From Algibacter sp. (GTDB lineage Bacteria; Bacteroidota; Bacteroidia; Flavobacteriales; Flavobacteriaceae), in NCBI GenBank assembly GCA_050294475.1, contig JBNKOE010000005.1, positions 11,176-75,175 of the forward strand: 64,000 nucleotides of DNA, written 5' to 3'. How positions within the stretch are numbered: position 1 is the stretch's first letter; each line of letters starts with the position of its first letter. The notes beneath the pieces were generated by a model, which was given only the letters and a program-made list of their open reading frames with translations, did no database searches and was not told the origin of the DNA. The position numbers and the translations under genes were made by a program. Shown here in pieces: positions 8,626 through 64,000 of the stretch.

Positions 8626-8662
8626 GATATAAAACATTAAAACAATTTCATATCAAGTTGTT
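8626..8662 (+). other. Degenerate attI-like / secondary insertion site
   Basis: ACAATT-TC-ATATCAAGTTG|TT resembles ACAATT-GTCT-ATATCCAATTG|TT at 63762-63784. Confidence 0.55.
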
Positions 8663-9293
8663 GTAACACATTTAACCAAACCAAGAAACTTAATATTTAT
8701 GAAGAAAATTTTACCAATCATTATTGTCGGAATTATAACTGGAGCAATCGGATTTTTTGCTGGAAAAACAGTTGGATATGACGAAGCTGAAAGAATGCAA
8801 AGTTATCGAAGTGTCGAATCTATTAAATCGGACTTAAAACAACGTGAAACTAAAATGATTTCGACTCTATTAAACGGAACTGCACGAATTGAAACGCGAA
8901 ATGAAGGCGGACTTTTTAGCAGTAAAAAATCGAAATATCTGACTGGTAAAATTCTAAACAACGCTTTAGTTGCGAAAGCAAAAGATGTGAAAGTAATTGT
9001 GACATTTTTATCCAAAACAAAATCGGAAATTGGAAAAGCGGAATTTACTATTTACGAATATATTGAACCTGGAAAGTCGCAATCTTTTGAGAAGAAAGTA
9101 AATGTCTCTCAAGATGTGGCTGAATTTAGCTGGAATATTGTAGATGCAAAAGCGGAATAAAAACGTGTTACAACAATGTATAAAAATAATTGCGGTTTAG
9201 TTCTTAATCAAAGGTAGTTACGTGTTTGATACGTCTGAATTTCCTTCGGAAATTCCTCGCACGCAAACCCGCAACTATTCTTATACGAGACCG
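8661..9293 (+). mobile_element. Solo integron-like gene cassette
   Basis: Starts G|TTGTAACAC (8660-8669), the exact reverse complement of GTGTTACAAC (9165-9174) after its stop codon; ends at G9293|TT. Confidence 0.85.
8699..9160 (+). CDS. Cassette-borne hypothetical membrane-anchored protein (C-terminal Ig-like/FxLYD-like domain possible)
   Basis: N-terminal TM segment; GKILNN..AKDVKVIVTF..YEYIEPGKSQSF pattern. Confidence 0.75.
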   Translation: MKKILPIIIVGIITGAIGFFAGKTVGYDEAERMQSYRSVESIKSDLKQRETKMISTLLNGTARIETRNEGGLFSSKKSKYLTGKILNNALVAKAKDVKVIVTFLSKTKSEIGKAEFTIYEYIEPGKSQSFEKKVNVSQDVAEFSWNIVDAKAE

Positions 9294-9300
9294 TTAAACG
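9165..9300 (+). repeat. attC-like site A
   Basis: TTACAAC-AAT-GTATAAAAATAATTGCGG ... CCGCAACTATTCTTATAC-GAGACC-GTTAAAC; 18-bp stem with 2 mismatches; R' fits GTTRRRY. Confidence 0.85.
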
Positions 9301-9303
9301 AAC

Positions 9304-10002
9304 CTAATAAAATTCAGCCTCAAAAAGCACACTAAAATGTTTCAATAACTTTTCTTTAACCTCAGCTTCATCAACCCTTTGTTGCCCTAACTCTACATTT
9401 AAAGAAGTAACGGCTTTACCACGAATACCACAAGGTATAATATTATCAAAATAACCTAAATCGGCATTTACGTTAAGCGCAAAACCATGCATAGTTACCC
9501 AACGGCTAGCTCGTACACCCATAGCACAAATTTTACGAGCAAATGGTGTACCAACATCTAACCAAACACCTGTTTCACCTGAGCTTCTTTCAGCTTTTAA
9601 ACCATATTCGGCAAGCGTAAGAATAATCATTTCTTCAAGTAAGCGTAAGTATTTATGTATATCGGTAAAAAAGTTTTCTAAATCTAAAATTGGATATCCT
9701 ACAATTTGCCCAGGACCATGATAGGTTATATCGCCTCCCCTATTAATTTTGTAAAAAGTAGCTCCTTTTTCGACAAGTTGTTGCTCGTTTAAAAGCAAAT
9801 TAGATAAATCGCCACTTTTACCCAAAGTGTAAACATGAGGATGCTCTACAAATAAAAAATAATTATTAGTCTTTAAATTAGTATTGTCTTTTCTGTTTTT
9901 AATTTTGGCATCAACAATACCTTTAAACAACTGCTCTTGGTATTCCCAAGTTTGTTTGTAATCATTAAAACCTAAATCTTGCAGTTTAATTTGCTTATTC
10001 AT
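9304..10002 (-). CDS. lipB: Lipoyl(octanoyl) transferase
   Basis: [46 protein letters not shown]. Confidence 0.96.
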
Positions 10003-10031
10003 AGGCTGCAAAATTACAATATTTTTATGTT

Positions 10032-10190
10032 TTAATTCTTCGGATTATTAAGAATAACTAAAGCCGCAATAACACCAGGAACCCAGCCACAAATTGACAA
10101 AATAAAGACAATAATAATAGAGCCACATCCTTTATCTAAAACAGCTAAAGGCGGACAAATAATAGACAGTAAAACTCTCCAGAAACTCAT
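10032..10190 (-). CDS. YqaE/Pmp3-family small membrane protein (52 aa, absent from the ORF track)
   Basis: Manual translation [52 protein letters not shown]; PPLAV and W.PG signature. Confidence 0.88.
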
Positions 10191-10297
10191 GATTTGATTT
10201 ATTTTATTTGATTAATGATACTTACTTGACGTATTAACACTACTAATGTTACAATTTATCATATTCATTTTAAAATAAATTATAGTAGATTAGTAGC

Positions 10298-11350
10298 ATG
10301 TTAAGAAACCTGATTTTGTTGTTATTTTTAATAATGTCTCTTTCTGTAAAAGCACAGTATCATTTTACAGGACGTATAGATAATAAACAATGGCAAAACA
10401 ATGTTTACCTTTCCTTAATTGAAGATTATCGAAAAATTTCTGGGGTTTATTTTGAACAAATTATAGCTAAGGTAAATACCGATAGCTTAGGTTATTTTGA
10501 GTTTTCAGGAAATCAATTAGAAGATGATAACAGAATTTACAGAATTCATGTTGACAATTGTTTTGATAACGAACAAAACAGCAATCATTTTAATGGACAT
10601 TGCAATGATAGTAAAGAAGTTATTTTCATTGCGAAAAACAATGATACCATTGCGTTCCCTTTTTCGTTTGGAAAAGAAATGTTTTGCCAAATTGAATCTA
10701 CCAACAAAAAAGCAACTGCCTTTATTAAAATTGATTCTTTAAAAGATGAAATGAAATTTGCATACAGCGAATTTAGAAGTGAAGCCAACCGAAAACTTAA
10801 TAATAAAAAATGGTTTAAAACATTACAAGATTTTGGTGAAACACAAAACGAACCCATTGCCGAACTTTATACTTATTCATTTTTATCAGATAGAAGAAAC
10901 GATTTTCACAAACATTACCTTGAAGACTTAAAAAACAATCCGTATTATCATAATTTATTAAATCGTTTAATCGAACGCTACCCAAATTCACCTTACACAA
11001 AACAATATCGAGAAGAGTTAAGCTCTGATGAATTTATAATCAATAACAATACATCTACTTCTTCTTTCAACTGGAATTATTTAACTTTCTTTCTATTAGC
11101 AGTTTCGTTAATTATTAATTTTTGGTTTTGGTATACCCAAAAAAAGAATAAAACAATTAGCAAAGCTAAAGAGCAACTTACCAAACAGGAACAAAATATT
11201 CTTAATCTTTTACTTGAAGATAAATCTAATAAAGAAATAGCCGAAGCTGTTTTTGTTAGTGTAAGTACTGTAAAAACACATCTTAACAATATTTACAAAA
11301 AACTGAATGCTCAATCTAGAGACGAAATTAAATCACTATTTAACAGGTAG
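10298..11350 (+). CDS. Membrane-anchored LuxR-type transcriptional regulator
   Basis: Signal peptide, exported domain, TM helix, then LTKQEQNIL..SNKEIAEAVFVSVSTVKTHLNNIYKKL. Confidence 0.85.
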   Translation: MLRNLILLLFLIMSLSVKAQYHFTGRIDNKQWQNNVYLSLIEDYRKISGVYFEQIIAKVNTDSLGYFEFSGNQLEDDNRIYRIHVDNCFDNEQNSNHFNGHCNDSKEVIFIAKNNDTIAFPFSFGKEMFCQIESTNKKATAFIKIDSLKDEMKFAYSEFRSEANRKLNNKKWFKTLQDFGETQNEPIAELYTYSFLSDRRNDFHKHYLEDLKNNPYYHNLLNRLIERYPNSPYTKQYREELSSDEFIINNNTSTSSFNWNYLTFFLLAVSLIINFWFWYTQKKNKTISKAKEQLTKQEQNILNLLLEDKSNKEIAEAVFVSVSTVKTHLNNIYKKLNAQSRDEIKSLFNR

Positions 11351-11457
11351 TTACAAAAAATCAACCTAGTACTAGTACTTATTTCAACCCTAAATAACAA
11401 CCTGTTATTTACTATTTTCATCATGTTTGCATCATTATTAATCAAAAAACAAACATT

Positions 11458-11895
11458 ATGATTTTATCAATTACCAAATTACAAACAGTAAAAACAAAAT
11501 TATTATTAGTAATCTGCTTATTTATTTATGCTGCAAATTTTGCTCAAGAAACAACAGCTAATACAAACGCTGGTGTATTATCCTTTAAAACAGAAATTAT
11601 AGATTACGGCACTATTGAACAAAATGCCAACGGCGAGCGTATTTTTACTTTCACCAATACTGGCAAAAGCCCTATTGTTATTACTAGTGTAAAAACCTCT
11701 TGTGGATGTACAGTACCTTCATATTCTAAAACTCCAATTATGCCAGATGAAAAAAGTGAGATTAAAGTTAAATACGCAACAAACAGAATTGGTACTTTTT
11801 CAAAAACTATCACAGTCATATCAAATGCTTCAGAAAGCAATAAAATATTGCGTATTAAAGGCGAAGTTCTAAAACCAAAACAAGCAAAAAGCTAA
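11458..11895 (+). CDS. DUF1573 domain protein
   Basis: FTFTNTGKSPIVITSVKTSCGCTVP motif. Confidence 0.9.
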   Translation: MILSITKLQTVKTKLLLVICLFIYAANFAQETTANTNAGVLSFKTEIIDYGTIEQNANGERIFTFTNTGKSPIVITSVKTSCGCTVPSYSKTPIMPDEKSEIKVKYATNRIGTFSKTITVISNASESNKILRIKGEVLKPKQAKS

Positions 11896-12014
11896 GTTTT
11901 CACTTGTTTTTATACTAAAATTAAAATCTACCAATAAGTTGTATGCTATTTTTTTGAAAATAATGTAATTTTGCAGCCATCTGTCGCAAAAGACAATATT
12001 CAAAATTAATTAGC

Positions 12015-13706: not shown

Positions 13707-13859
13707 AAAAATAAGCACATTATTTTTTTTTACCTTTAATAGGAAATATTAAATTATATTAATATTTTAGTAAAAACCAATATTATCGAAATAAATAATA
13801 TTGGTTTATTATTTAATTTGGTAAAACTTCTCTCGCATTAGCCTCAAACTAAAACAGAA

Positions 13860-15914: not shown

Positions 15915-15935
15915 TTATACAGAACTATTAAATAA

Positions 15936-15967
15936 AAAAATCAGTAATTTTTCAATTACTGATTTTT
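15936..15967. terminator. Bidirectional intrinsic terminator
   Basis: AAAAATCAGTAATT-TTTC-AATTACTGATTTTT. Confidence 0.75.
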
Positions 15968-36915: not shown

Positions 36916-37767
36916 ATGCAGTATTCAGTATCCAAATCCAATATTCAGTCTTACTTTAAAACAAAAAACACAATATTATTCTCATTTTTTGTTGCTTTTT
37001 TATCGTTTAGCTTTTCTTATGCACAATTTGAAATTCCTGAAAAACCAGACTTTCAAACTAGTATTTATGATTATTCAAAATTACTTTCTACTTCGCAAAA
37101 AAATAACCTTGAACAAAAGTTAATAAAATATTCAGACACAACTTCCACTCAAATAGTTATAGCTATTATCAATTCAACCAATGGTGAAAACATCAACTTC
37201 TTAGGTGCTCAATGGGGGCAAAAATGGGGTATTGGACAAAAAAAGGAGGATAACGGCATTTTAATTTTACTTGCTAAAAACGATAGAAGAATAGCTATAA
37301 ACACTGGATATGGTATAGAATACCTTTTAACAGATGCCCTATCTAAACGTATTATTGAACGAGATATTATTCCCTATTTTAAACAAAACGATTATTATGG
37401 CGGATTAAATCGCGGTGCTGATGCTATTTTTGAAGTACTGAACGGTGAATATCAAGGAACAAGAAAAACATCTTCTAATAACGGGGTTCCTGTTGGACTT
37501 ATAGTCATTATTATTTTTATCATTATTATCATTTCTATTTCTAAAAATAGACGAGGTGGTGGTAATAATAGAGGAAACAGATCTGGCGGTATAGATATTT
37601 TAGAAGCCATTATTTTAAGTAATATGGGACGTGGTAATTACCACAAAGGTTCTTCTGGAGGCTTTGGAAGTAACTCAGGTGGTGGATGGTCATCTGGTGG
37701 TGGCGGTTTTGGCGGCGGCTTCGGAGGTGGCGGCTTCGGAGGTGGCGGTGCTTCTGGAGGTTGGTAA
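36916..37767 (+). CDS. TPM domain protein (YgcG-like) with Gly-rich tail
   Basis: WGIGQK..DNGILIL, GYGIE..LTDA, GGGFGGGGASGGW. Confidence 0.9.
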   Translation: MQYSVSKSNIQSYFKTKNTILFSFFVAFLSFSFSYAQFEIPEKPDFQTSIYDYSKLLSTSQKNNLEQKLIKYSDTTSTQIVIAIINSTNGENINFLGAQWGQKWGIGQKKEDNGILILLAKNDRRIAINTGYGIEYLLTDALSKRIIERDIIPYFKQNDYYGGLNRGADAIFEVLNGEYQGTRKTSSNNGVPVGLIVIIIFIIIIISISKNRRGGGNNRGNRSGGIDILEAIILSNMGRGNYHKGSSGGFGSNSGGGWSSGGGGFGGGFGGGGFGGGGASGGW

Positions 37768-37843
37768 TACTAACTAGTAACAAAACGCTCTCTAAGTAAT
37801 AATTTTTTATTCAAAGTGCTCTAACAATTTCATTGAGTACTTT

Positions 37844-37945
37844 ATAAAAAATAATGACTCTAATTCAGATTTAAGCAATTATGTTAATTTTAAGAATGAA
37901 AAAGAACCAACCACTATTAATTTAGGAATTGGAATTGAATTATAA
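37844..37945 (+). pseudogene. 3' remnant of a cassette ORF
   Basis: Startless frame ...DLSNYVNFKNEKEPTTINLGIGIEL* ending 1 nt before attC-like site B. Confidence 0.45.
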
Positions 37946-37946
37946 C

Positions 37947-38080
37947 GTATGCTAACACAGTATCAAAAATCGCTAATTTTATCCTAAACCAATGTTAGTA
38001 GCTTTGCTTGCTTACGATTTTACTTCGAAAAATACTCGCACACAAACCCGCACTATTCTTATACAATCACGTTGCATGTA
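37947..38080 (+). repeat. attC-like site B (left arm decayed)
   Basis: TGCTAAC-ACA-GTAT... ; right part TACTTCGAAAAATACTCGCACACAAACCCGCACTATTCTTATAC-AATCAC-GTT closely matches site A. Confidence 0.8.
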
Positions 38081-38101
38081 ATTTGAACAAATTAAATATA
38101 A

Positions 38102-39064
38102 ATGAAAAAATTAAATCTGATTTTATTGGTGTTAATCCCAATATTAAGTTTCGGACAAACTGAAAAAGAAACTAACAAAAAGATTTCTGCTGAATTTGAA
38201 AAACACTTCAATTCAGATGAATATCAAAAGATTTTTGACTTGTTTTCGCCTGAAATGAAAAGTGCCTTACCAATTGAACAAACGACTGACTTTTTAAAAG
38301 GACTGAAAAGTCAGACAGGAAAAATTAAAAAAAGGGAATTTATAAAATATGAGCAGACTTATGCCTCTTATAAGACAATCTTTGAACGAACTATTTTTGC
38401 AGTAAATATATCACTTGACAATAATGCAGAAATCAATGGTCTTTTTGTAAAACCTTTTAAAGAAGATAATCTTCCCAAACTTGAAAGAAATAAAACGAAA
38501 CTGGTTTTGCCGTTTAATAGTGAGTGGACAGTAATTTGGGGCGGAGACACTAAAGAATTAAACTATCACGTAGAAAGCGAAGCTCAAAAAAACGCATTCG
38601 ATATTGTAATTACAGACAAAAACGGAAAAACCTTTAAAACAGACGGAAAAACAAACGAAGATTATTATGCTTTTGGAAAAGAATTTATTGCACCTTGTGA
38701 TGCAGAAGTGGTTTTAGCGGTTGACGGAATAAAAGACAACACACCTGGAGAATTAAATCCTATTTACATTCCAGGAAATACTGTAATTTTAAAAACAGAA
38801 AATGACGAATATTTATTCTTTGCTCATTTCAAACAAAATTCGATTGTCGTAAAACAAGGACAAAAAATAAAACAAGGAGAATTATTAGGGCTTTGTGGAA
38901 ATTCCGGAAATTCTTCAGAAGCTCATTTACATTTCCACATTCAAAATGTGGAAGATATAAACAAAGCGACTGGAGTAAAATGTTATTTTGACGAAATAAT
39001 TGTGAATGGAGAATTGAAAAAAGACTATTCGCCAATAAAAGGAGAAGAAATTAAAAACAAATAA
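38102..39064 (+). CDS. Cassette 1: exported M23 peptidase with N-terminal DUF3887-like domain
   Basis: Signal peptide; AFDIV, FAHFKQ, GNSGNSSEAHLHFH. Confidence 0.85.
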   Translation: MKKLNLILLVLIPILSFGQTEKETNKKISAEFEKHFNSDEYQKIFDLFSPEMKSALPIEQTTDFLKGLKSQTGKIKKREFIKYEQTYASYKTIFERTIFAVNISLDNNAEINGLFVKPFKEDNLPKLERNKTKLVLPFNSEWTVIWGGDTKELNYHVESEAQKNAFDIVITDKNGKTFKTDGKTNEDYYAFGKEFIAPCDAEVVLAVDGIKDNTPGELNPIYIPGNTVILKTENDEYLFFAHFKQNSIVVKQGQKIKQGELLGLCGNSGNSSEAHLHFHIQNVEDINKATGVKCYFDEIIVNGELKKDYSPIKGEEIKNK

Positions 39065-39068
39065 AAAC

Positions 39069-39207
39069 TACTGGCAGCAATGGTTATAAGTAATTGCCTG
39101 TTCTCGCCTACTTCTAAAAATACTCGCAGATTTTTAGCTTAGGTGTGTACTTGCAGAGTTAAGTGCTAGACTACGCAACTACTCATAGCCAAACCATTGG
39201 CGTTAAT
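39069..39207 (+). repeat. attC-like site C (both cores mutated)
   Basis: CTGGCAGC-AAT-GGTTATAAGTAATTGC ... GCAACTACTCATAGCC-AAACC-ATTGGCGTTA; AAC changed to AGC and GTT to ATT. Confidence 0.8.
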
Positions 39208-39242
39208 TTTGGAAACAAACTGCAAAATTGAAAACACATAAG

Positions 39243-40343
39243 ATGAAATATTCATTACTAATAATTATCTTGATTAATACAATATTGAGCTATAGTCAAG
39301 AGATAACCATAGAAAAAATAAAATTAACTGAAACAGTTGATAATCGTTATGTTTCTGAAATCCCTAAAGTAAAAGACTTAACCAATAATAAAAATCCTAT
39401 TGTAGAGAAAATTAATTCTCAGATTCTTGATCGTTTTATGATTAATAGCTTTAATCAAAATGAATTAGAAGAATTTAGATGGTACGAAGTTGAATGTTCA
39501 TTTGAGATAAAAGAGAATATTCTTTATATATCATTTGCAGGAGAGTACTATGGAGCATATCCAAATTATGTTGAAGATGAATTTTATTTTGATTTAAAAA
39601 ATGGGGAGCCTCTAAAATTATCCATTATTCCTTTTCAAGCGTTATTCACATTATCTGGATATCTAGATTTTCTTAACAAATATTGGCTTAAAGGAGTTAA
39701 AAAGAAATTTATAGCTGCTATCGAGTGTGCGGAATTTGAGCCTTACTGTAGTTACTATGACATTTATAATTACAGTGTAAAAGATAATAAATTCTCGATT
39801 TCGCTATCAAATGACTGTTATCCTCACGTAGCTCAGGCATGTTCTCCTTATTATGAAATATCTGTAGAACTTGATACTCTTAAACAATACATAAATGAAC
39901 TTGGAAAATATATCCTTTTAGAAAGCAATTATTTATCAGAAACTCCAATTGAAAAGTTTTTAGAAAATGAGAAATTGAAGAAAGAAACAGAAAACAATTT
40001 ATTCATCTTTGGGAAGATTGACGATAAATATCCTTTTAGTATGGCAATAAATATAGATAATCAAGGAGTAATATCTGGTTACTATTATTATGATTTAAAA
40101 CTTCAAAAACTGGTATTGAAAGGACAAAAAAAAGATAATACTATGCTATTAACCGAGACAATTAACAATAAACAAACTGGATTCTTCGAGCTAAATATTA
40201 GCAATACATACAACTCGGAAAGTTTCTTTTTATATGACTCTAACGGAAATGATAAATACTTGATTGGAAAATGGCTGAATTCTGATAAAACGAAGATTCT
40301 TGACATTAAATTTTCAGAAGTAAAAACAAATGATAAAAACTAA
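39243..40343 (+). CDS. Cassette 2: exported hypothetical protein (RsiV/DUF3298-like region possible)
   Basis: Signal peptide; INSQIL...YISFAGEYYGAYP..FYFDLKNG; stop codon overlaps the core TAACGCCAAC. Confidence 0.7.
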   Translation: MKYSLLIIILINTILSYSQEITIEKIKLTETVDNRYVSEIPKVKDLTNNKNPIVEKINSQILDRFMINSFNQNELEEFRWYEVECSFEIKENILYISFAGEYYGAYPNYVEDEFYFDLKNGEPLKLSIIPFQALFTLSGYLDFLNKYWLKGVKKKFIAAIECAEFEPYCSYYDIYNYSVKDNKFSISLSNDCYPHVAQACSPYYEISVELDTLKQYINELGKYILLESNYLSETPIEKFLENEKLKKETENNLFIFGKIDDKYPFSMAINIDNQGVISGYYYYDLKLQKLVLKGQKKDNTMLLTETINNKQTGFFELNISNTYNSESFFLYDSNGNDKYLIGKWLNSDKTKILDIKFSEVKTNDKN

Positions 40344-40455
40344 CGCCAACACTTAGATGTAGTGCATTCGGGTTCTAGCGGCTTGCGAGCGTTTGTAGCT
40401 CGTAAAAAAAGTAGATATAAACTGATTCGCTAAAAAATTAGATTTACTATAACCC
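40341..40455 (+). repeat. attC-like site D, left part only
   Basis: TAACGCCAAC is the reverse complement of the cassette 2 start (G/A)TTGGCGTTA; no right arm or GTT before the next ORF. Confidence 0.6.
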
Positions 40456-40471
40456 TTAAGACTATATAGAA

Positions 40472-41053
40472 ATGCAAAATGAAATTAAATTAACAACAAA
40501 AAAGATTAAAACGGCACAAAAAATAGGTAATGTCTTTTTTGCCATTATACTTATTTTAAATGTCTGGATTATGATTAAACCTTTAATCGTTAATTTTGAT
40601 CTAAGGGATATTGGGGTGTTTAAGCTTCTTAGAAATAATGAGACATATGTAGTACTTGGTGCATTTGTAATATTACTTGGCGTTCGGTTTTTAGTTATTA
40701 ATTTTCTTGCTATATCAGGAGCTAAAATTATAGGAGATAATATAATTATACAAAAACAATTCAAGCCTGATAAGGCTTACTTGTTTAATCAGATAGTTTC
40801 TATTAATTCTATTGGGTATAGAAATGTGCGATTTTTTAAATTATCGATACAAGACAACAATAAAATTAATGAGTGTTTAATATTTAGCACATATTGTTTG
40901 CCAGAATTTGAAAATAAAAATGTAGAACAGGTTTTGATTAGTTTACAAAAAACAGATAGCAGAAATAAAAATAGTAGTATTGAATTACTCAAAAACATAG
41001 ACATAATAAACATATTTTTAGAATTCAAAAAGAGGTTTTCTTTTAGAAAATGA
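40472..41053 (+). CDS. Cassette 3: hypothetical membrane protein
   Basis: Two TM segments; 193-aa ORF between hairpin sites. Confidence 0.65.
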   Translation: MQNEIKLTTKKIKTAQKIGNVFFAIILILNVWIMIKPLIVNFDLRDIGVFKLLRNNETYVVLGAFVILLGVRFLVINFLAISGAKIIGDNIIIQKQFKPDKAYLFNQIVSINSIGYRNVRFFKLSIQDNNKINECLIFSTYCLPEFENKNVEQVLISLQKTDSRNKNSSIELLKNIDIINIFLEFKKRFSFRK

Positions 41054-41145
41054 TTTAAACCCGAATAATTTGTATGTAAGATGTTTACAATTAAGAAATA
41101 TTGAAAACATATAAGTCTTTCATTTCAACATATCGGAATAACAAC

Positions 41146-41282
41146 AAATCGCTAAGTGCTCATAAATAATATGGCAGCCAGTGGTTTGCGAAGGACTGTT
41201 CTTTTGATTATGTTTGATTCAAATTTGGATAGAAGTTTGGTAAAGTGCCAAACTATTCATAGCACAAAACGTTAGGCTCCAT
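41146..41282 (+). repeat. attC-like site E
   Basis: TCGCTAAG-TGCTCATAAATAATATGGC ... GCCAAACTATTCATAGCA-CAAAAC-GTTAGGC; R' fits GTTRRRY; left core damaged. Confidence 0.72.
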
Positions 41283-41313
41283 GCTAAGAGTCGTACACAT
41301 TGATTAAAAATAT

Positions 41314-42354
41314 ATGAATTACCAAAATTATTTACTCACATACCTTGTCTTTATCCTTTTTTGTGGATGTAATTCTAATAGTTCTCAAAATCGAATTAAT
41401 AATAAGACAAAAGAAATTGAATTAATTAAATCTGTAAAAAAAGATACTATTTCATCTGCAATATTGGATAAAGAAAAAATTTCTTCTACAAAAAACACAA
41501 AGATTCAAGACTTACTTGATAAAGTAGAATTATTGCAAGTTCCTTTAACTTATTCTTTTGAAGACACTTTCAATATTAATGCAATAAAAGAAACAAAGCC
41601 TTTATCTGATGAGGTTTTGGATTTACTGAGTGTTGAAAAAATTCACAATGGAGAATATGATTTTAGGGGAAGGCTTTGGTTGTCATTTCAGCTTAATTTG
41701 TCAAAGAATTTTAAAACCTTGGTTTTTTCTATCGAAGATGGTGGTTCGGGCGAGAGTGTACTTGTTAATTATTCAAATGATTTTAAATTTATTGATTATA
41801 GAAGTATTGCTTATGAAGATTATGCAGAAGGATGGTTCTCGTCTAATTCATTGATTGAAAAAAATAGAATGTTTTTATATAAGGATAGCTATACAGATTA
41901 TCCTGCGGAATACGATACAATATGTTTGGTTATAGATGAATATGGAGGAATAGATACCTTACCTGTTGAAAAAACAACCAAAATAGATAATGCAACAGTA
42001 GATGACACATACAATAATGTTCATGAATCAATTAGGGCGTATAAAAAATTAGAAAATATATTAGTAACAGAGAAGTTTCTAATACGGATAGACAGATTAA
42101 ACGATAAAAGTTATCGTTATGCTTCATGGTCGAAAAATCAAAAAGTATCAGAGAAACCAGATTTGGTATTGTTAAAAGGTGAATATTTAAGAGAAGGAAC
42201 TGGTGGTAATTATAGTTATGAATTTAGTAATGGTAACTATCTTTATCGGTGTTCATTTCAGCCGTTAAGAGAAAGTCAGGCTCCTCCTGCAGTTTTAAGA
42301 GTGTACAAAGACGATGAAGAAATTTTATATCAACCTGCAGAAATAATAAAATAA
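41314..42354 (+). CDS. Cassette 4: hypothetical lipoprotein
   Basis: Lipobox-like FCGC; C-terminal IRID...YRYASW...KPDLVL..G..GTGGN.SYEF.NG.Y.Y domain. Confidence 0.72.
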   Translation: MNYQNYLLTYLVFILFCGCNSNSSQNRINNKTKEIELIKSVKKDTISSAILDKEKISSTKNTKIQDLLDKVELLQVPLTYSFEDTFNINAIKETKPLSDEVLDLLSVEKIHNGEYDFRGRLWLSFQLNLSKNFKTLVFSIEDGGSGESVLVNYSNDFKFIDYRSIAYEDYAEGWFSSNSLIEKNRMFLYKDSYTDYPAEYDTICLVIDEYGGIDTLPVEKTTKIDNATVDDTYNNVHESIRAYKKLENILVTEKFLIRIDRLNDKSYRYASWSKNQKVSEKPDLVLLKGEYLREGTGGNYSYEFSNGNYLYRCSFQPLRESQAPPAVLRVYKDDEEILYQPAEIIK

Positions 42355-42360
42355 TGCACG

Positions 42361-42498
42361 AGATTACAACACTTTATAAATTTAATTACGGGTATACTTA
42401 AATTGGCGGCTTTGTCCATTTACTGTTCCTTTTGTTTATCTGAACAAAGAAACGCTTCAAAATTCGCAACGTCAATTTATAAATAATCGTTATGTTTC
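42361..42498 (+). repeat. attC-like site F
   Basis: ATTACAAC-ACT-TTATAAATTTAATTACG ... CGCAACGTCAATTTATAA-ATAATC-GTTATGT. Confidence 0.78.
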
Positions 42499-42530
42499 AT
42501 ATCAAAACGACACTGCAATCATATAACATT

Positions 42531-43114
42531 ATGATAAAATTTAGATTATATACTTTACTAATTTTCATATTAATCCTACAAAATGGATTTGATCAAGGTT
42601 CATTGAAAAAATCATTTCAAGACAAAAACTCATTTAAAATAGCTAAGACAAGGCTGAATGATTTTGGATTAAAGTTTAAAACTCAGGAATCAGAATCTCA
42701 ATTTAAGATAATCTTTAAAGAGAATTCAAAAGTTGATTCTGTAAAGATGTGGAAAAGAATTTAAAACTTGCTTTCACAAAAACTGACCATCCATTAGACG
42801 CCGATTTGCATTTAGCTTTTTCAGTTGCACAAAAAAGAAAAGACACAAAACGGGCTGAACAAATTGCAATCCGATTAGCAAAAGGAGGAGTTCCTTTAAG
42901 ATACTTTAGATATTATAAAAAATCTGATTGGTATGTCAACTTTGTGAAGGATTTTGAAAACTACTCAAATTTTTACAACGAAAATTTCTACCCTGAATTA
43001 AGAGATAAATTTAATTCATTAATAGAAAGAAATATTGAAATTGTTGAGAATGTTTTTGACACTCTATATGAAATTCCGAATAAAGGATTAAGATTAAAAA
43101 ACAAGCTATTTTAA
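42531..43114 (+). pseudogene. Cassette 5: frameshifted exported hypothetical protein
   Basis: ORFs 42531-42764 and 42749-43114 join as ...DSV(K)DVEKNL with a 1-nt shift near 42745; no downstream attC-like site. Confidence 0.65.
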
Positions 43115-43199
43115 GCTAATTTTAAAACAAAGTTTTCATCGTATGGTCTTCCTAATTTTACAATAACAAAGGTCTGTTTTATAAAAACTTAAAATTATT

Positions 43200-44510
43200 T
43201 TACTTCTTACGCATATAAACACTAATAGGAACTCCTTTAAAATTGAAATGCTCACGTAGTTTATTTTCTAAGAAACGTTTATATGGTTCTTTTACATACT
43301 GTGGTAAATTACAGAAAAAAGCAAACTGTGGTTGCGGTGTTGGCAACTGCATGATATATTTAATCTTCACATATTTTGCTTTATATGCAGGCGGTGGATA
43401 ACTTTCTATTATTGGCAAAAAGATTTCGTTAAGCTTACTCGTTTTAATTTTCTTAGAACGGTTTTGGTATACCTCAACAGCTGTTTCAATAGCTTTATAA
43501 ATTCGTTGTTTAGACAATGCCGAAATAAATACAACTGGCACATCTGTAAAAGGTTCCATTTGTTTTTTAATAGCTTTTTCGTATTCTTTAACAGATTTAT
43601 GGTCTTTTTCTACTAAATCCCATTTATTTACTAAAACAACAATCCCTTTTCTGTTACGTTCTGCCAACCAAAAAATGTTTTGTACTTGTCCGTCAAAACC
43701 ACGAGTAGCATCTAACACTATCAAACAAACATCACTATGTTCAATAGCTCGTACACTTCGCATAACCGAATAGAACTCTAAATCTTCTTTTACTTTAGAT
43801 TTTCTACGAATACCTGCAGTATCAACTAAATTAAATTCAAACCCAAAACGATTATATTTTGTATCAATAGAATCACGTGTTGTTCCTGCTATATTGGTAA
43901 CAATGTATCTATCTTCACCAATTAAAGCATTTATAAAAGATGATTTACCTGCATTAGGGCGACCTACAACAGCAAAACGTGGTAAAACTTCAACTTCTTC
44001 TTCCTGTTCTTCATTTTCTGGTAATGCTTCAACAAGCGCATCTAACAATTCTCCTGTACCACTACCATTAATACTTGCAATGGTATAATATTCACCCAAT
44101 CCTAAAGAGTAAAACTCTACAGCATCTTCGGCTCTTTTAGCATTATCTACTTTATTTACAACAAGAAATACAGGTTTACTTACTTTTCTAAGTAATTTAG
44201 CAACATCCTCGTCCATACCTGTTACGCCAGACTCTACATCTACCATAAAAATAATAGCATCGGCTTCATCAATAGCTAATTCTACTTGCTTATCTATTTC
44301 AGCTTCAAAAACATCATCACTTCCTAACACATAACCACCTGTATCTATAAGTGAAAATTCTTTACCGTTCCAATCACTTTTACCATAATGACGGTCTCTA
44401 GTAACTCCACTAACAGCATCAACAATGGCTTCTCTTCGTTGAATTAAACGATTAAAAAACGTTGATTTCCCTACATTTGGTCTTCCTACAATAGCTACTA
44501 TATTACTCAT
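43200..44510 (-). CDS. der: Ribosome biogenesis GTPase Der
   Basis: Two GTPase domains ([17 protein letters not shown]), DTGG/DTAG, KH-like tail. Confidence 0.98.
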
Positions 44511-52702: not shown

Positions 52703-54034
52703 ATGTCAAACACAAACCGATTCACAGAACAAAAAAACAACACACTAATCCCAATAATAATCATAGCTGGATTATTTTTTATATTCGGATTCGTAACTTG
52801 GATTAATGGTGCTTTAATTCCATTTATGAAAACTATAAGTGAATTAACTTCAGCGCAATCACTTTTAGTCGCGTCTGCGTCCTATATATCATTTGTTGTT
52901 ATGGCTTTACCAGCTTCTTATGTTTTGGAGAAAATTGGATATAGAAAAGGCATGTCGTTAGGATTATTCATTATGGGATTAGGAGCTTTAGTTTTTATTC
53001 CAGCTGCAGAAGCCCGAACATATTGGATGTTTTTAGGAGGTATTTTTATTCAGGGTGCAGGAATGACATTATTACAAACAGCTTCAAACCCATACATAAC
53101 TATTTTAGGTCCTATTGAAAGTGCTGCTAAACGCATTTCTATAATGGGTATTGCAAACAAAGTTGCAGGCGCCTTAGGCTCTCTTATTTTTGCTTCACTT
53201 TTATTATCAGGTATTGATGAAATTAATGAAAAACTAAAAACCGTTTCAGTTACCGAAAAAGCGCAATTATTAGATACGATGGCAGATAGCGTTGTAACAC
53301 CTTATATCGTTATGGCAATTGTTTTATTTGTATTAGGTATACTAATTAGAAAAGCACCGCTTCCACATGTAGAAGCAGTACCTATTGAAGAATCAAAAGA
53401 CGGAGTTACAACTAAAACCAGTATTTTTCAGTTTCCTCATTTATGGTTAGGTGTAATAACATTATTCATGTATGTTGGTGTAGAAGTTATTTCAGGAGAC
53501 ACCATTATAGCCTATGGGATTTCATTAGGAATTCCTTCTGCCGACGCCAAATTTTTCACCACCTTTACATTAATGGCTATGGTTGCTACCTATGCATTGG
53601 GAGCTATTTTAATACCAAAATTCATGAGTCAAACTACCGCTTTAAAATTAAGTGCTTCATTAGGTATTATATTATCTTTTTGTATTGTATTTACAACAGG
53701 ATTTACTTCTGTTTTATTTGTAGCTGCTTTAGGAATAGCAAATGCTTTGGTTTGGCCTGCCGTATGGCCTTTAACGTTAAAAGGTTTAGGTAAATTTACA
53801 AAAACAGCTTCAGCATTATTAATTATGGCTATTTCTGGCGGCGCGATTATTCCGCCTTTATACGGACGATTTGTTGACGGAAATAAAGCCGCATACATAG
53901 CTGAAGGGCTTAATGATGCTTTAGCTACAGCTACCGCGTCTACCAAAGGTTATTGGATTTTATTACCTTGTTACACTATTATACTTTATTACGCTATTGC
54001 TGGTCATAAATTAGGATTGAAAAAAGAGAAATAA
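52703..54034 (+). CDS. MFS sugar transporter, FucP/GluP family
   Basis: FFIFGFVTW.NG.LIP, LQTASNPY, YVGVEV, MAISGGAIIP. Confidence 0.9.
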   Translation: MSNTNRFTEQKNNTLIPIIIIAGLFFIFGFVTWINGALIPFMKTISELTSAQSLLVASASYISFVVMALPASYVLEKIGYRKGMSLGLFIMGLGALVFIPAAEARTYWMFLGGIFIQGAGMTLLQTASNPYITILGPIESAAKRISIMGIANKVAGALGSLIFASLLLSGIDEINEKLKTVSVTEKAQLLDTMADSVVTPYIVMAIVLFVLGILIRKAPLPHVEAVPIEESKDGVTTKTSIFQFPHLWLGVITLFMYVGVEVISGDTIIAYGISLGIPSADAKFFTTFTLMAMVATYALGAILIPKFMSQTTALKLSASLGIILSFCIVFTTGFTSVLFVAALGIANALVWPAVWPLTLKGLGKFTKTASALLIMAISGGAIIPPLYGRFVDGNKAAYIAEGLNDALATATASTKGYWILLPCYTIILYYAIAGHKLGLKKEK

Positions 54035-57183: not shown

Positions 57184-57203
57184 CTTAATAATTAATTTAT
57201 AAA

Positions 57204-58652: not shown

Positions 58653-58675
58653 TATAATTTATAATTGAATACTTT

Positions 58676-59980: not shown

Positions 59981-59982
59981 AA

Positions 59983-60441
59983 CTATTTTTTTAAAAGATC
60001 TGAAGTTTTGTAATAAATTATTAGAATGCCGCTAATAGGAATTACCATATAAACAAATGCTAATGGTATTTGTAATGCTGGAGAGCTTTGACCAAGTAAA
60101 TAGCTAATATATACTAACCTAGATCCGCCAATAACTAAAGCTGTTATAGAAAATAAAATAATAATAATATAAACTACTCGCATTATTCTTTTTTGATTTT
60201 CAGGGCTTGCTCTTTTTGGTAGAACGTCTATAGCAACATGCATATTCCTACCAGACACATAAGCTGCACCTAGGATCCCTATCCAAATCATTAAATATCT
60301 TGCCAACTCATCGGTGAATGAACTTGGCACACCTACTACAAACCTTGTAAATACTTGCCAGAGTACGTTCACTACCATAATACCCATAATAATAATGAGA
60401 ACATTACTTAGAATTTTATCAATCTTTTCTCGAAGCTTCAT
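59983..60441 (-). CDS. TRAP transporter small permease (DctQ)
   Basis: WQVFTRF, ELARYL.IW, HVAID. Confidence 0.92.
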   Translation of the reverse strand: MKLREKIDKILSNVLIIIMGIMVVNVLWQVFTRFVVGVPSSFTDELARYLMIWIGILGAAYVSGRNMHVAIDVLPKRASPENQKRIMRVVYIIIILFSITALVIGGSRLVYISYLLGQSSPALQIPLAFVYMVIPISGILIIYYKTSDLLKK

Positions 60442-60532
60442 GTGTTTTTAATATTTTGTTTAGTGGTTACCTATTTTATCTGTTTAACAATTACTATAGG
60501 TTAATTATTCTGAGAATAATGCTTTTTAAGTA

Positions 60533-61507
60533 TTATTTTGTTTCTATAATTTGTTTTATTAATCGATTTATTACAGGATCATTTTTATAACCATCATAAA
60601 TACTTTCTACTTTACTTTGAAATACTGCTTTGTCTGGTCTAATGATTGTTACACCTGCTTTTTCTACTTCGCGAAGTGCTTCTTCTTCTGCTTCTAGCCA
60701 CAATTTACGTTGATAAATAACAGACTTATCGACAGATGCTTGCAACCATTCTTGTTCTTGTTTGGTTAATTTATTCCAAGTTTGTGTTCCAATAACTAAT
60801 ACATCTGGCAGAACAGTATGTTCATCTAACGAATAGTACTTACATACTTCATAATGACGTGATAAATAAAAACTAGGCGGATTATTTTCGGCGCCATCTA
60901 CAACACCCTGTTGTAAAGACGTATATAATTCACCCCAAGAAATTGGTGTTGCAGAACCTCCTAAAGCCTTAACCATATCTATAGCTGTTACACTTTCCAT
61001 TACCCTAACTTTTAATCCTTTTAAATCGCTTGGAGTATTAATTGGCTTATCTTTAGTATAAAAACTTCTACTTCCTGCATCATAATATGCTAATCCTTTT
61101 AACCAATATTGCTCGCCATCATCAAGTATTTCTTTACCAACAGCACTATCTAAAACATCAAACGAATGCTGTCTATCACGAAACAAAAAAGGAACTCCAA
61201 AAACCTTCATTTTTGGCGCAAAATTTTCCATAACACCTACAGATACTTTAGTCATATCTAAACTTCCAATTTGCAGAAGTTCTAAACACTCGCGCTCGCT
61301 ACCTAATTGCTGACTTGGGTAAATTTGAAGTTTCATTTTTCCACCAGATCTTTTTTCTAGATCTTTACCCAATTCAACCATAGCCTTATGCACCGAATGG
61401 TTAACATCTAGACCATGAGCTATTTTAATGGTTTTTACTTTATTAGCTTCGCTACACCCTACCAAAACTATAGCAAGTAAAAGCGTTATAAATTTAATTT
61501 TTTGCAT
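60533..61507 (-). CDS. TRAP transporter substrate-binding protein (DctP)
   Basis: QIYPSQQLGSE, DLKGLKVRV, ELYTSLQQGVVDGAEN. Confidence 0.94.
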   Translation of the reverse strand: MQKIKFITLLLAIVLVGCSEANKVKTIKIAHGLDVNHSVHKAMVELGKDLEKRSGGKMKLQIYPSQQLGSERECLELLQIGSLDMTKVSVGVMENFAPKMKVFGVPFLFRDRQHSFDVLDSAVGKEILDDGEQYWLKGLAYYDAGSRSFYTKDKPINTPSDLKGLKVRVMESVTAIDMVKALGGSATPISWGELYTSLQQGVVDGAENNPPSFYLSRHYEVCKYYSLDEHTVLPDVLVIGTQTWNKLTKQEQEWLQASVDKSVIYQRKLWLEAEEEALREVEKAGVTIIRPDKAVFQSKVESIYDGYKNDPVINRLIKQIIETK

Positions 61508-61570
61508 TTTTTATATTGTTAATATTATGTAGGGTTTTAGTTATTTTGTGCTTAAAACAAAACTATCTAT

Positions 61571-62971
61571 TTAAATTTTAAAATATTCCTTAGCGTTAAA
61601 ATAACTAATATCAGAAACCATTTTACCTATCCATTCCATATCATTTGGTAATTCACCTCTTTTTATTTCATCTCCTAAAAGATTACAAAGAATACGTCTA
61701 AAATATTCATGTCTTGGGAATGACAAGAAACTTCTAGAATCTGTTAACATACCAATAAAACAGCTAATTAAACCCATATTTGAAAGCGCATTTAATTGTT
61801 TTATCATACCGTCTTTTTGATCTAAGAACCACCAACCTGAACCAAACTGAACTTTACCTTTTACACTACCGTCGTTAAAATTACCAATCATGGTAGCCAT
61901 AACTTCATTATCGGCAGGATTTAAGTTATAAATAATGGTTTTTGTTAATTTATCTTTGCTATCTAGCGCATTTAAAAATGCAGATAATTTTTGTGCTTGT
62001 GGATAATCGCCTATAGAATCCCATCCTGTATCAGGACCTAAAACATCTAACATTCTTTTGTTATTATTTCTTAAAGCCCCTAAATGATATTGTTGTACCC
62101 ATCCGTATTCATGATACGTTTCTGCTAAAAATAATAAAATAGCACTTTGGAATTTTAAGACTTCTTCTAATGTAATATTTTGATTTTCTCTTTTCTTTTT
62201 GAAAATTGATTTCACTTCAGCTTCTGTGAATTTTTCAAAATAAATTTGGTCTAAACCATGATCGCAAACGCTACATCCGTTTTTATCAAAAAAGTCTATT
62301 CTACTTTTTAATGCATCACATAATTCATCATATGTATTAATAGATGTTCCTACAACACTTGCTAAAGAATCTACATAATTGTTATAACCTTCATTAGAAA
62401 TCAAAATGGCTTTATCTGGTCTAAATGAAGTTCCTACTTTAATATCTATGTTATTTTTAATAATCTGTTGATGATATTCTAAAGTATCAGTAGGGTCTTC
62501 AGTAGTACAAACATATTCTGCATTAACTTTGCGAAGCAAATTTTGAGTACTGTACTCTTTAGTGTTAACTTTAGCTGATACTTCTTCATAAATTTTCTCT
62601 GCAGATTTTTCATTTAACAAATCATACACATCAAAATAACGAGCTAACTCTAAATGTGTCCAATGATATAAAGGATTACGCATTGTGTAAGGTACCGTTT
62701 TTGCCCAATTTAAAAACTTATCCTTATCAGAAGCTTCACCAGTAATAAAATTTTCATTAATACCCAAAGTACGCATGGCACGCCATTTGTAATGATCACC
62801 ATTTATCCATACTTGTGTAATATTGTCGAATATTTTATCCTCTGAAATTAACTGTGGTGACAAATGATTATGATAATCTATAATTGGCTGATTTTTAGAA
62901 TAATTATGATATAACTCTTCAGCGTATTTGTTTTCTAAAAGAAAATTGTCGGTAATAAAATTTTTGCTCAT
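61571..62971 (-). CDS. uxaC: Uronate isomerase
   Basis: IIDYHNHL, GDHYKWRAMR, NPLYHWTHLEL, GSGWWF, TDSRSFLS..RHEYFRR. Confidence 0.96.
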   Translation of the reverse strand: MSKNFITDNFLLENKYAEELYHNYSKNQPIIDYHNHLSPQLISEDKIFDNITQVWINGDHYKWRAMRTLGINENFITGEASDKDKFLNWAKTVPYTMRNPLYHWTHLELARYFDVYDLLNEKSAEKIYEEVSAKVNTKEYSTQNLLRKVNAEYVCTTEDPTDTLEYHQQIIKNNIDIKVGTSFRPDKAILISNEGYNNYVDSLASVVGTSINTYDELCDALKSRIDFFDKNGCSVCDHGLDQIYFEKFTEAEVKSIFKKKRENQNITLEEVLKFQSAILLFLAETYHEYGWVQQYHLGALRNNNKRMLDVLGPDTGWDSIGDYPQAQKLSAFLNALDSKDKLTKTIIYNLNPADNEVMATMIGNFNDGSVKGKVQFGSGWWFLDQKDGMIKQLNALSNMGLISCFIGMLTDSRSFLSFPRHEYFRRILCNLLGDEIKRGELPNDMEWIGKMVSDISYFNAKEYFKI

Positions 62972-63035
62972 TTTAAGCTTATTATCTTTAATTTATTTTT
63001 GTGGTTTATCTAAAATATTTGACAGAAACTATAAA

Positions 63036-63051
63036 TTGTAATCGATTACAA
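63036..63051. promoter_or_regulatory. Candidate LacI-family operator upstream of uxaC
   Basis: Perfect 16-bp palindrome TTGTAATCGATTACAA, fits TGnAAnCGnTTnCA. Confidence 0.72.
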
Positions 63052-63449
63052 AAAAGAAAGGAGTATATTAAAAAGCACATATCTTTTCTAAGATTTAATC
63101 TTGTAAGTTTTCAATTTTGAAACATTTTAAACCGAGTAAATATATATAATATAAATGCATAAGCAAAGTGGATAACAAAAAAAAAGCGATATTTCTATCC
63201 TACCAATTTAATTTGAAATTTCCAGTTTTTAACCCATTACCTGTAACTGGTAATTTAATAGTTCCTATTTCATTTAAAGGTTAAACTATCACATAAATAT
63301 TGTAGACAGAACACATCATGCCATAGTTGAAACTGAGTGTTTTTTAACAAGATATTTATTGTTTAACTATTTAAATTTCATTTTCTAATTTACTCTACCA
63401 CCTTCAAATTTTTTCACTACGTGGAATTATCCAATGACCCTGTGTATAA

Positions 63450-63740
63450 AATCACAAAGAATACTGTCCCAACAAATATCTATTTGAAGGACAAAAAGGA
63501 AACAAATATAGTGTTACAAGTGTTTTAAATATTATTTCTACAGCAGCTAAAAAAGCTGGAATTTATAAAAAAGTAACACCACACATGCTAAGGCATAGTT
63601 TTGCGACACACCTATTAGAAAACGGAACAGATATTAGGCATATACAAATATTACTAGGACATAGTTCTACTAAAACGACAGAAATTTACACACATGTAGC
63701 AAATAAATCGTTTATGGAAATAAAAGATTTACTATCTTAG
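63450..63740 (+). pseudogene. 5'-truncated tyrosine recombinase (integron-like integrase)
   Basis: Manual translation [19 protein letters not shown]...[42 protein letters not shown]; in-frame TAA at 63447; absent from the ORF track. Confidence 0.9.
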
Positions 63741-63752
63741 TTTTTTATAATG

Positions 63753-63793
63753 TGGATATAGACAATTGTCTATATCCAATTGTTGCCAGTAAT
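63753..63793 (+). other. Candidate attI-like recombination site
   Basis: Perfect 26-bp palindrome TGGATATAGACAATTGTCTATATCCA, then ATTG|TTGCCAGTAAT; G at 63782, 42 nt after the integrase stop. Confidence 0.65.
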
Positions 63794-63807
63794 GTAAACC
63801 AATCTTC

Positions 63808-64000
63808 ATGCTGAAAGGATTATTTAAGAAAAAAACACCTGTAGAAAAGTTTATGGCTCATTTGGATAGAATTTTCCAAACCGAACCTGAATATTACAAA
63901 GAAGAATCAGAAACGGATGGAATTGCTGGAGTTACAAGCATAGTTTATAAAGATATTCCTGAAAAAGGAATGATAACTGGAATTACATACGGACTTTCAC
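63808..64000 (+). CDS. First-cassette ORF, partial; SUFU-like (suppressor-of-fused domain) protein possible
   Basis: MLKGLFKKKTPVEKFMAHLDRIF...YKDIPEKGMITGITYGLS runs off the window; the TYGLS motif suggests SUFU. Confidence 0.55.
   Translation, partial: MLKGLFKKKTPVEKFMAHLDRIFQTEPEYYKEESETDGIAGVTSIVYKDIPEKGMITGITYGLS

Follow-up and report, generated by a model that had tools for sequence, protein, structure and literature searches.

The stretch analysed here, referred to as the window, comprises 64,000 nucleotides of contig JBNKOE010000005.1 from the genome of Algibacter sp. (Flavobacteriaceae). It has a G+C content of 30%, and its der gene is 93-94% identical to those of Algibacter and relatives. 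Open reading frames (ORFs) accompanied by hairpin-like recombination sites lie at three loci of the window, the last of which also carries the 3' end of a tyrosine recombinase gene (positions are counted from the first letter of the window):

Locus 1, 8584-9295, + strand: a single intact-looking cassette in a short hairpin site, between a PPK2 fragment (+) and lipB (-)
Locus 2, 37768-43114, + strand: an array without recombinase, flanked by a TPM-domain gene (+) and der (-), of about six ORFs whose sites are partly decayed
Locus 3, 63453-64000, + strand: a 5'-truncated recombinase gene, an attI-like site and a first cassette, cut by the window end

We consider it probable that these are three pieces of an integron-analogous cassette platform which is widespread in Bacteroidota. 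[quoted passage not shown] From these we infer a circular intermediate, folding of a single strand, the exact position of the cut and current activity.

Cassettes and recombination sites

Loci 1 and 2 hold the following features. Scores in brackets are those of R2, a covariance model built from alignment A4, whose training sites all came from other genomes and none from the window.

8584-8662, +: putative array start module (tentative), a conserved leader of ~25 nt followed by a short hairpin site, here called 'X', without recombinase
8661-9293, +: cassette A, ORF 8699-9160 and its recombination site
9165-9295, +: site A, attC-like, 131 nt (74.8 bits, E = 3e-15)
37947-38073, +: site B, attC-like with a decayed 5' arm (34.1 bits, E = 8e-6)
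38074-39196, +: cassette C, ORF 38102-39064, limited by the GTT of site B and the ATT of site C
39069-39198, +: site C, attC-like, 130 nt (90.6 bits, E = 7e-19)
39197-40350, +: cassette D, ORF 39228-40343 and the 5' core of its site
40341-40350, +: site D, reduced to the 5' core TAACGCCAAC, the remainder of the site being absent
40472-41273, +: ORF 40472-41053 (193 aa, membrane protein) with site E
41136-41273, +: site E, marginal (16.5 bits, E ~0.1)
41314-42491, +: ORF 41314-42354 (346 aa, lipoprotein-like) with site F
42361-42491, +: site F (29.2 bits, E = 1e-4)
42492-43114, +: the last two co-oriented ORFs (90 and 121 aa), with no Pfam family and, by model, no site after them

The initial annotation of this DNA had reported two cassettes which begin with the exact reverse complement of the core behind their own stop codon, and both repeats are indeed present: the reverse complement of GTTGTAACAC at 8660 recurs as GTGTTACAAC at 9165 (10/10), and that of TTGGCGTTA at 39197 as TAACGCCAA at 40341 (9/9, or 13/15 when extended). 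Because a generic scan for reciprocal 10-mers is uninformative at 30% G+C, yielding about 35 chance pairs per 10 kb at one mismatch or less, reciprocal ends were judged by positional tests and cross-locus controls. In the array of Cellulophaga sp. L1A9 (locus L093), all six cassettes start with the reverse complement of their own site's 5' core, the matching first 9-10 bases being G|TTGTAnnnn. For first cassettes located directly after an attI-like junction, the closest reverse-complement match to the start was exact at 6 of 13 loci and had one mismatch at three others, compared with 0 and 6, respectively, among 156 cross-locus pairings. Imperfect palindromes with AAC/GTT cores, whose 5' core is complementary to the cassette start, are what characterizes attC sites, and this is what was found here. 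A second copy of GTTGTAACAC at 53291 lies within an MFS transporter gene with no site nearby and was dismissed as a chance occurrence.

As to the proteins encoded, the ORF of cassette A (153 aa) is predicted to carry an N-terminal membrane helix and has only 12 homologues among 5.8 billion proteins. The ORF of cassette C displays DUF3887 and an M23 peptidase domain together with a signal peptide, and that of cassette D (371 aa) also starts with a signal peptide. Apart from DUF3887 and the M23 peptidase, no Pfam family was detected in any cassette ORF of the window.

Six related hairpin sites with AAC...GTT cores had been proposed, all on the + strand and each following an ORF. Their common strand and their position directly after an ORF stop were borne out by the ORF list and the coordinates, and relatedness is supported by R2 for C, A, B and F and marginally for E. 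Scanning both strands of the window, the model ranked C, A, B, F and E, in this order and in a single orientation, as its five top matches, with no further match at E < 0.2; in 1.6 Mb from unrelated loci of 80 other Flavobacteriaceae species it found only two matches. An nhmmer profile of non-window sites, using sequence only, likewise recovered C (E = 5e-16) and A (E = 7e-15). Two parts of the proposal did not stand. Site D keeps its 5' core only, and neither R2 nor the other models matched anything in 40341-40470, so that a complete site D was ruled out. Site C, furthermore, carries mutated cores, namely AGC for AAC on the 5' side and A|TT for G|TT on the 3' side. Rfam and tRNA scans of the window gave no match, including at the cassette sites.

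Site A is composed of the 5' core GTGTTACAAC, an imperfect stem of 16-18 bp, a variable loop, the spacer GAGACC and the 3' core G|TT. Its bottom strand folds at -19.6 kcal/mol (z = -2.3) and is the only one of the window sites above chance. Site B, which shows 93.5% identity to site A across 31 nt, is preceded by a spacer of ~180 nt with a tiny ORF remnant after the TPM-domain gene; its 5' arm is decayed, and the folding-energy calculation found no fold for it. Site C belongs to the same family as a site at 7287-7415 of locus L106, and the 3' arm of site E, CCAAACTATTCATAGC...AAAACGTT, is similar to a C-type arm.

Site 'X' at the beginning of locus 1 has the layout TTCGTTTAAC ... GATATAAAA/TTTCATATC ... 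AAGTTG|TT and was detected by none of the site models. The stretch 8584-8662 is homologous to positions 3207-3286 of a Mariniflexile sp. AS56 locus (L089), where another array starts. The 5' core TTCGTTTAAC of site 'X' has an exact reverse complement in GTTAAACGAA at 9293-9302, a match which fits our tentative view that cassette A was inserted into site 'X'.

Across genomes, site lengths range from 58 to 208 nt, and the spacer before the GTT measures 5-7 nt (GAGACC, CCAAAC, CTAAACC). Cassette boundaries in the curated sites were set by eye, since automatic chaining by arm score mis-assigned several 3' ends. A bottom-strand alignment of ten sites of the ~130-nt class revealed a 16-bp consensus stem with compensatory changes in 10 of the 16 pairs and with G.U at one stem position in all ten sites and at another in eight. 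Among 20 curated sites, the arm mismatches comprise 75 A>G and 26 C>T, which are wobble pairs in the bottom strand (101), versus 13 G>A and 11 T>C, which are wobble pairs in the top strand (24). As for extrahelical bases, the arm alignments give few and inconsistent single-base bulges, strand-asymmetric G.T/A.C positions being found instead. Since A.C mismatches in the top strand correspond to G.T wobbles in the bottom strand, the folded single bottom strand would be the substrate, as in integrons. The asymmetry may also prevent terminator-like hairpins in the mRNA.

The recombinase family and its attI-like junction

Locus 3 consists of three adjoining parts:

63453-63740, +: recombinase remnant, 5'-truncated, the last 95 residues of ~375 aa; Xer/IntI superfamily, rAID-type
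63741-63784, +: attI-like site, TTTTTTATAATGTG, with a perfect 24-nt hairpin GGATATAGACAATTGTCTATATCC (63755-63778) and AATTG|TT
63783-64000, +: start of the first cassette, beginning TTGCCAGTAATG, with an ORF from 63808 that is cut by the window end

The remnant of a tyrosine recombinase, a G|TT core and a new ORF had been recognized in this order by the initial annotation. The remnant matches positions 93-170 of Pfam PF00589 and corresponds to residues 281-375 of 375; it was the only match in the window of a tblastn search with an Xer/IntI-type query, and is 85% identical to the Cellulophaga L093 recombinase (tblastn). Intact genes were collected by a metagenome scan with a read-through protein, which provided 28 loci with ~19 intact genes at 69-85% identity; here and below, comparisons with metagenomes and isolates rest on assembled contigs only. 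The GTT at 63782-63784 is the exact end of homology to ~20 intact loci, originating from marine metagenomes and one Cellulophaga genome. Every locus with sequence after the stop codon displays the junction TAG-YGCTATAATGYG-GGATATAGACAATTGTCTATATCC-AATTG|TT, which the window shares, and diverges immediately after the GTT. This conserved junction lies 40-45 nt 3' of the recombinase stop, and none of these ~20 loci contains an IntI. A site adjoining the recombinase gene, with cassettes inserted at G|TT, is the arrangement known from attI. The hairpin itself is 94% paired and shows four compensatory pairs, with a covariation score that none of 500 shuffles reached. Many of the contigs end 70-700 nt after the recombinase gene, which would be expected if repeats came next.

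The L093 recombinase gene is full length apart from one frameshift and heads six co-oriented cassettes; within recombinase loci, 20 of 20 site matches have the same orientation relative to the recombinase. The 12-nt start GTTGCCAGTAAT of the first cassette of locus 3 also heads different cassettes in locus L097 and in Mariniflexile. A tandem triplicate of the attI-like hairpin was seen in L109 after position 1450, and a second attI-like copy lies within the array of L116 (9858-9898).

The full-length recombinases (367-384 aa) comprise an additional N-terminal region of ~100 aa, a Phage_int_SAM_4 domain and the catalytic domain. They reach 217-225 bits with NCBIfam model NF040815 (XerA/'integron integrase'; cut-off 220) and stay well below the cut-offs of the XerD, XerC and integron-integrase models; the matches to TIGR02249 (184 bits, cut-off 265) and NF011946 (115-123 bits, cut-off 435) are both split into two stretches. 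The insertion specific to IntI, which contacts the extrahelical bases of folded attC, is reported to be essential for integron function (PMC8138268). In an alignment to VchIntIA (2a3v), residues 271-296 of the query (26 aa) stand opposite IntI residues 176-244 (69 aa), which is ~43 residues fewer. As the integron-specific insertion is absent and the integron-integrase cut-offs are missed, the family does not qualify as IntI by sequence. A cluster look-up of recombinase representatives returned almost no taxonomy, and two look-ups for identical proteins gave no match.

The remnant's 120 closest homologues measure only 68-158 aa, and truncated copies are therefore recurrent. In one of the truncated proteins (P0133, 192 aa), a ChaN-like N-terminus is joined in frame, at KGNKDR, to the 3' end of the recombinase gene. 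Upstream of the remnant in the window, ~480 bp of AT-rich non-coding DNA (62972-63452) separate uxaC from the stub, and the contigs from sister strains are interrupted at ~63386 and ~63631, a pattern compatible with repeated sequence in this region.

In the isolate runs, the 5' 880 nt of an intact-type recombinase gene lie on a single-copy contig, and the last ~260 nt of the gene together with attI are several-fold deeper, with at least three different upstream junctions. At least three recombinase stubs with different break points are present in the source genome (positions 1729, 1933 and 1947 of locus L094; isolate runs compared with L094 1729-2015). Judging from this pattern of depth and junctions, the genome probably possesses one complete recombinase gene besides several truncated ones, each at the head of a separate array.

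Cassette relocation and comparison with known systems

Cassette A was recovered in Mariniflexile sp. AS56 (L089 5962-6491) with 93.6% nucleotide identity over 530 nt. The homology begins exactly at 8660, with the G of GTTGTAACAC, and the cassette resides at another locus, with an insertion sequence (IS) on one side and groEL on the other, the IS having separated an A/B-type site from the GTT of the cassette. The next Mariniflexile cassette is likewise reciprocal (GTTGGCAAC vs GTTGCCAAC). Some metagenome contigs extend from 8660 into site A, where they end (spans 8660-9198 and 8660-9283), and others cross site A and diverge after 9295 into GGCAACAAGC... or GTGCATAATTTG..., both of which are cassette starts found after the attI-like site in L102, L089 and L104. 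Site A reaches a word depth of 2250-3340 in an algal metagenome, and sites A, B and C are high-copy, at 10-100 times the word depth of their flanks in algal and mixed-culture metagenomes; the same metagenomes lacked sites D, E and F. Cassette A and the attI-like site both look intact, and as a full-length recombinase appears to be present elsewhere in the isolates, cassette A may still be mobile.

Two further observations concern these cassettes. Contigs in three metagenomes join 8688 to 9159 and skip the ORF of cassette A, the shorter side being only 25 nt long; this joint may represent an ORF-less form of the cassette. In Mariniflexile, two sites (L089 6467-6669 and 7310-7481) contain the same insert of ~140 nt directly after the 5' core (AAAGARCTGAAATAAAAAACAAGTC...TTAAGCAAT), which may be a small element targeting cassette sites. 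IS1111-attC elements and group IIC introns are known to target attC.

Plasmids searched by tblastn included a Bacteroides ovatus replicon in which an integrase gene is followed by SMI1/KNR4, Imm26, PoNe, PoNi-like, Tdi1 and DUF3997 genes. Such rAID-1 clusters were described in gut Bacteroidales, and their repeats were already called 'reminiscent of integrons' in 2019 (Ross et al. 2019, bioRxiv 10.1101/471110); how the arrays are built was still termed unknown in 2025 (PMC12247911). The B. ovatus integrase is 59% identical to the window remnant and 37% identical to the flavobacterial recombinase P0134 over 359 aa, N-terminus included. Its spacers end in ...AACCA|TTAnnnnn and the next one begins nnnnnTAAC, with one mismatch at most in 8 of 11 cassettes. 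Because the integrase is homologous and the spacers obey the same rule, we regard the system of the window as a Flavobacteriaceae relative of rAID-1. In both, short genes with repetitive spacers and the same cassette logic form a co-oriented array headed by a homologous recombinase, and DUF3997 genes occur in the Cellulophaga array as well as in that of B. ovatus. At least two co-oriented downstream genes with repetitive intergenic sequence, as required for rAID-1, are present in L093, L106, L107 and L116; locus 2 has ~6 co-oriented ORFs but lacks the recombinase.

There are also differences. The host is a marine member of the Flavobacteriaceae and not of the Bacteroidales, the sites are 130-200 nt long with large variable loops while B. 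ovatus spacers measure 65-80 nt, and the core is mostly G|TTG instead of A|TTA. Recombinase-less arrays and single cassettes are scattered at other loci, and the cargo, in place of recognisable immunity families, is largely of unknown function (esterase, AraC regulator, M23 peptidase, toxin-antitoxin). rAID-1 cassettes encode orphan immunity proteins; neither the cassettes of the window nor 10 from related arrays matched a Pfam immunity family. DUF3997 and DUF4279 are present in L093. For rAID-1, a 5' XerD-like recombinase at least 44% identical to BF9343_RS08045 is demanded, and taking the B. ovatus integrase as a proxy for that protein, the identity probably lies below this published value. 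An array G+C content lower than that of recombinase and genome (<=41%) does not discriminate here, given the 30% of the window. Full-text literature searches returned no account of this system outside Bacteroidales, nor of the rule of reciprocal ends.

With integrons, the system shares a tyrosine recombinase of the same superfamily beside an attI-type site, imperfect palindromic cassette sites with AAC/GTT cores, exchange at GTT and reciprocal ends, as well as host-specific site families, recombinase-less arrays, cassette ORFs mostly of unknown function and assemblies that break at the repeats. It differs in a recombinase that lacks the integron-specific insertion, misses the integron-integrase cut-offs, has an additional N-terminal domain and is co-oriented with the array; in an attI-like site that is itself a covarying hairpin; and, as far as the arm alignments show, in conserved G.T wobble positions in place of clear extrahelical bases. 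The best sequence match to the catalytic and core-binding domains is provided by XerA/XerC-like resolvases (Protein Data Bank 4a8e, 5hxy; NF040815), with E = 1.9e-36 for 4a8e. Those enzymes act in the context of a single dif site and not of cassette arrays, and the present family is further set apart by its ~100-aa N-terminal domain and by a gene that is multi-copy and often truncated. A Bacteroidota cassette-capture system with a non-IntI recombinase, as the initial annotation had put forward, is therefore supported by the cassette logic, the family scores, the attI junction and the relocated cassette A: it would be integron-like in its working, lie outside the family defined by IntI and, being a rAID relative, have a precedent.

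Three other explanations have to be weighed. The sites could be ordinary integron attC sites, i.e. an integrase-less attC cluster (CALIN) and a stray cassette, moved by a canonical IntI that is encoded elsewhere or was lost, the Xer-like recombinase being coincidental. AAC...GTT cores, imperfect palindromes of this size, reciprocal ends, co-oriented ORFs that look promoterless and integrase-less arrays are all classical, and integrons are on record as forming both CALIN and single-site insertions at GNT (PMC9024848; bioRxiv 10.1101/2022.09.11.507474). Nonetheless, ~20 independent loci place the conserved GTT junction after a non-IntI recombinase without any IntI, the Xer/IntI-type query matched the remnant only, IntegronFinder surveys find integrons to be very rare in Bacteroidetes (PMC9024848), and the rAID-type array of B. 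ovatus follows the same logic with the same recombinase family, which makes this explanation quite improbable. We judge it highly improbable that the sites are non-mobile intergenic repeats (terminators, REP- or MITE-like) spreading on their own, with the 'cassettes' being variable genes in a gene-poor junction. The high copy number of sites A, B and C, the folding of most sites no better than shuffled sequence, the ~140-nt repeat inserted in two Mariniflexile sites and an array that is fixed in four isolates would all fit such repeats; they would leave unexplained why an ORF start is the reverse complement of the downstream 5' core, with a different 7-nt sequence in each cassette, why conservation stops at the GTT after the recombinase, and why ORF and core were relocated jointly, the same cassette having already been seen once at an identical boundary in another array.

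The recombinase could also exchange double-stranded cores at GTT in an Xer/dif- or lambda-like manner, the palindromes being terminators or regulatory hairpins. Such a mechanism would suit an enzyme without the IntI insertion that contacts the extrahelical bases of folded attC (PMC8138268), arm alignments without clear extrahelical bases, and closest solved relatives of XerA/XerC type, which act on duplex DNA. It offers no reason why a 5' core ~120 nt away should complement the first 7-10 bases of the cassette, why the stem should covary in 10 of 16 pairs with strand-asymmetric G.T positions, or why the attI-like site should be a covarying hairpin as well, and we consider it quite unlikely.

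In the integron-like reading, an intact recombinase of ~375 aa heads a co-oriented array, and its stop codon is followed at once by an attI-like hairpin with CAATTG|TT at the end. Each cassette usually consists of one ORF and an attC-like imperfect palindrome of 58-208 nt, in which a 5' core nnnnnnnAAC, a 16-bp stem, a variable loop and a short spacer precede the 3' core G|TT. The site would be used as a folded single bottom strand and exchange would take place within or adjoining the GTT, so that the first bases of each cassette partner the 5' core of its own site, as a circular intermediate requires. In its widest form, the proposal is that a second lineage of tyrosine recombinases, separate from IntI and without its insertion, runs an integron-type system on folded single strands across Bacteroidota, from marine Flavobacteriaceae to gut rAID, in which G.T wobbles rather than extrahelical bases mark the strand and a 3' stub of the recombinase gene accompanies the arrays as they are seeded around the chromosome. 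To this version as a whole we give somewhat less than even chances.

Several observations weigh against the integron-like reading. In locus 2, reciprocity is exact only for cassette D; it amounts to 8/10 for C, and no reciprocal start was found for E and F. With the 5' arm of B lost, the cores of C mutated, D truncated, E and F lacking a reciprocal partner and the isolates identical, most of this locus may be fossil. Differences in cassette order, for which a comparison of sister strains had been proposed, did not appear at locus 2: four isolates are identical over 37600-43300, there is no sign of recent shuffling, and no recombination event was observed across these 5.7 kb, nor any cassette-boundary joint in the assembled contigs of the isolates. 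The folding energies of most sites, with the exception of A, are no better than those of shuffled sequence, and a structure-only scan for AAC...GTT hairpins is unspecific, ranking A first in the window at a level that the background equals and leaving E indistinguishable. In Mariniflexile, cassette A has retained its ORF and 5' core with a different remainder of the site, a state not foreseen by simple integron-type exchange; a ~140-nt repeat inserted into the site would be the likeliest reason. The der-TPM junction is conserved in 80 Flavobacteriaceae species, whose gap holds ordinary conserved minus-strand genes, with no array and none of the cassettes of the window; locus 2 therefore offers no empty-site series of cassette-by-cassette gain and loss. 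Finally, the data locate the exchange in or beside the GTT, and the exact cut at G|TT is an assumption taken over from integrons.

Integrons are treated as a single invention tied to IntI, and surveys with IntI/attC models find almost none in Bacteroidetes (PMC9024848); rAID arrays are ecologically important in gut Bacteroidales, and their gene acquisition was still called unknown in 2025 (PMC12247911). Our comparison suggests that flavobacterial and rAID arrays are one cassette-capture system of defined anatomy, with an attI-like hairpin ending in GTT or ATT, an attC-like 5' core that pairs with the cassette start, and a strand-asymmetric stem. It gives a search model for cassettes in a phylum dominant in marine polysaccharide degradation and in the gut, and raises the question whether recombination of single-strand hairpins had two origins or is older than the IntI insertion. 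The mechanism is directly testable, since cassette A is a compact substrate of 633 bp and intact recombinases, such as WP_460190130.1 of Urechidicola sp. KH5, have been identified.

Insertion loci and their neighbourhood

The cassettes had been described as scattered at convergent-gene junctions, and the arrays of the window, L089, L091 and L092 do end at the 3' end of a convergent gene. Locus 2 abuts the 3' end of der (43200-44510, minus strand). A BLAST search of the six sites against the der-TPM loci of the 80 Flavobacteriaceae species gave nothing relevant. Isolated sites of the same family lie near era/der in a Lacinutrix metagenome-assembled genome (L076 6941-7072, 85 bits) and in Bizionia hallyeonensis (L060 3915-4031, 32.8 bits) and may be single stray cassettes. 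The arrays of L093 (16128-16160) and L101 (9749-9790) end in the same mini-site, nnnnTACAAC AATRGTAACC GTTGCACAACYCC, which may be a conserved array terminator or a minimal site.

Upstream of cassette A, a direct repeat of ~330 bp (5762-6090 and 8307-8636, ~98% identical), which covers the PPK2 3' end and a 55-nt leader, flanks an AbiE-type toxin-antitoxin island at 6090-8306 with the following content:

6190-6783: DUF6088
6786-7784: AbiEii
7917-8228: HATPase_c_3 fragment

The second PPK2 copy (8285-8578) is a C-terminal fragment only. An 8-kb contig from an algal metagenome joins 5139 to 9333, so that ndpA directly faces lipB, and therefore represents a relative without the whole PPK2/AbiE/cassette A insert.

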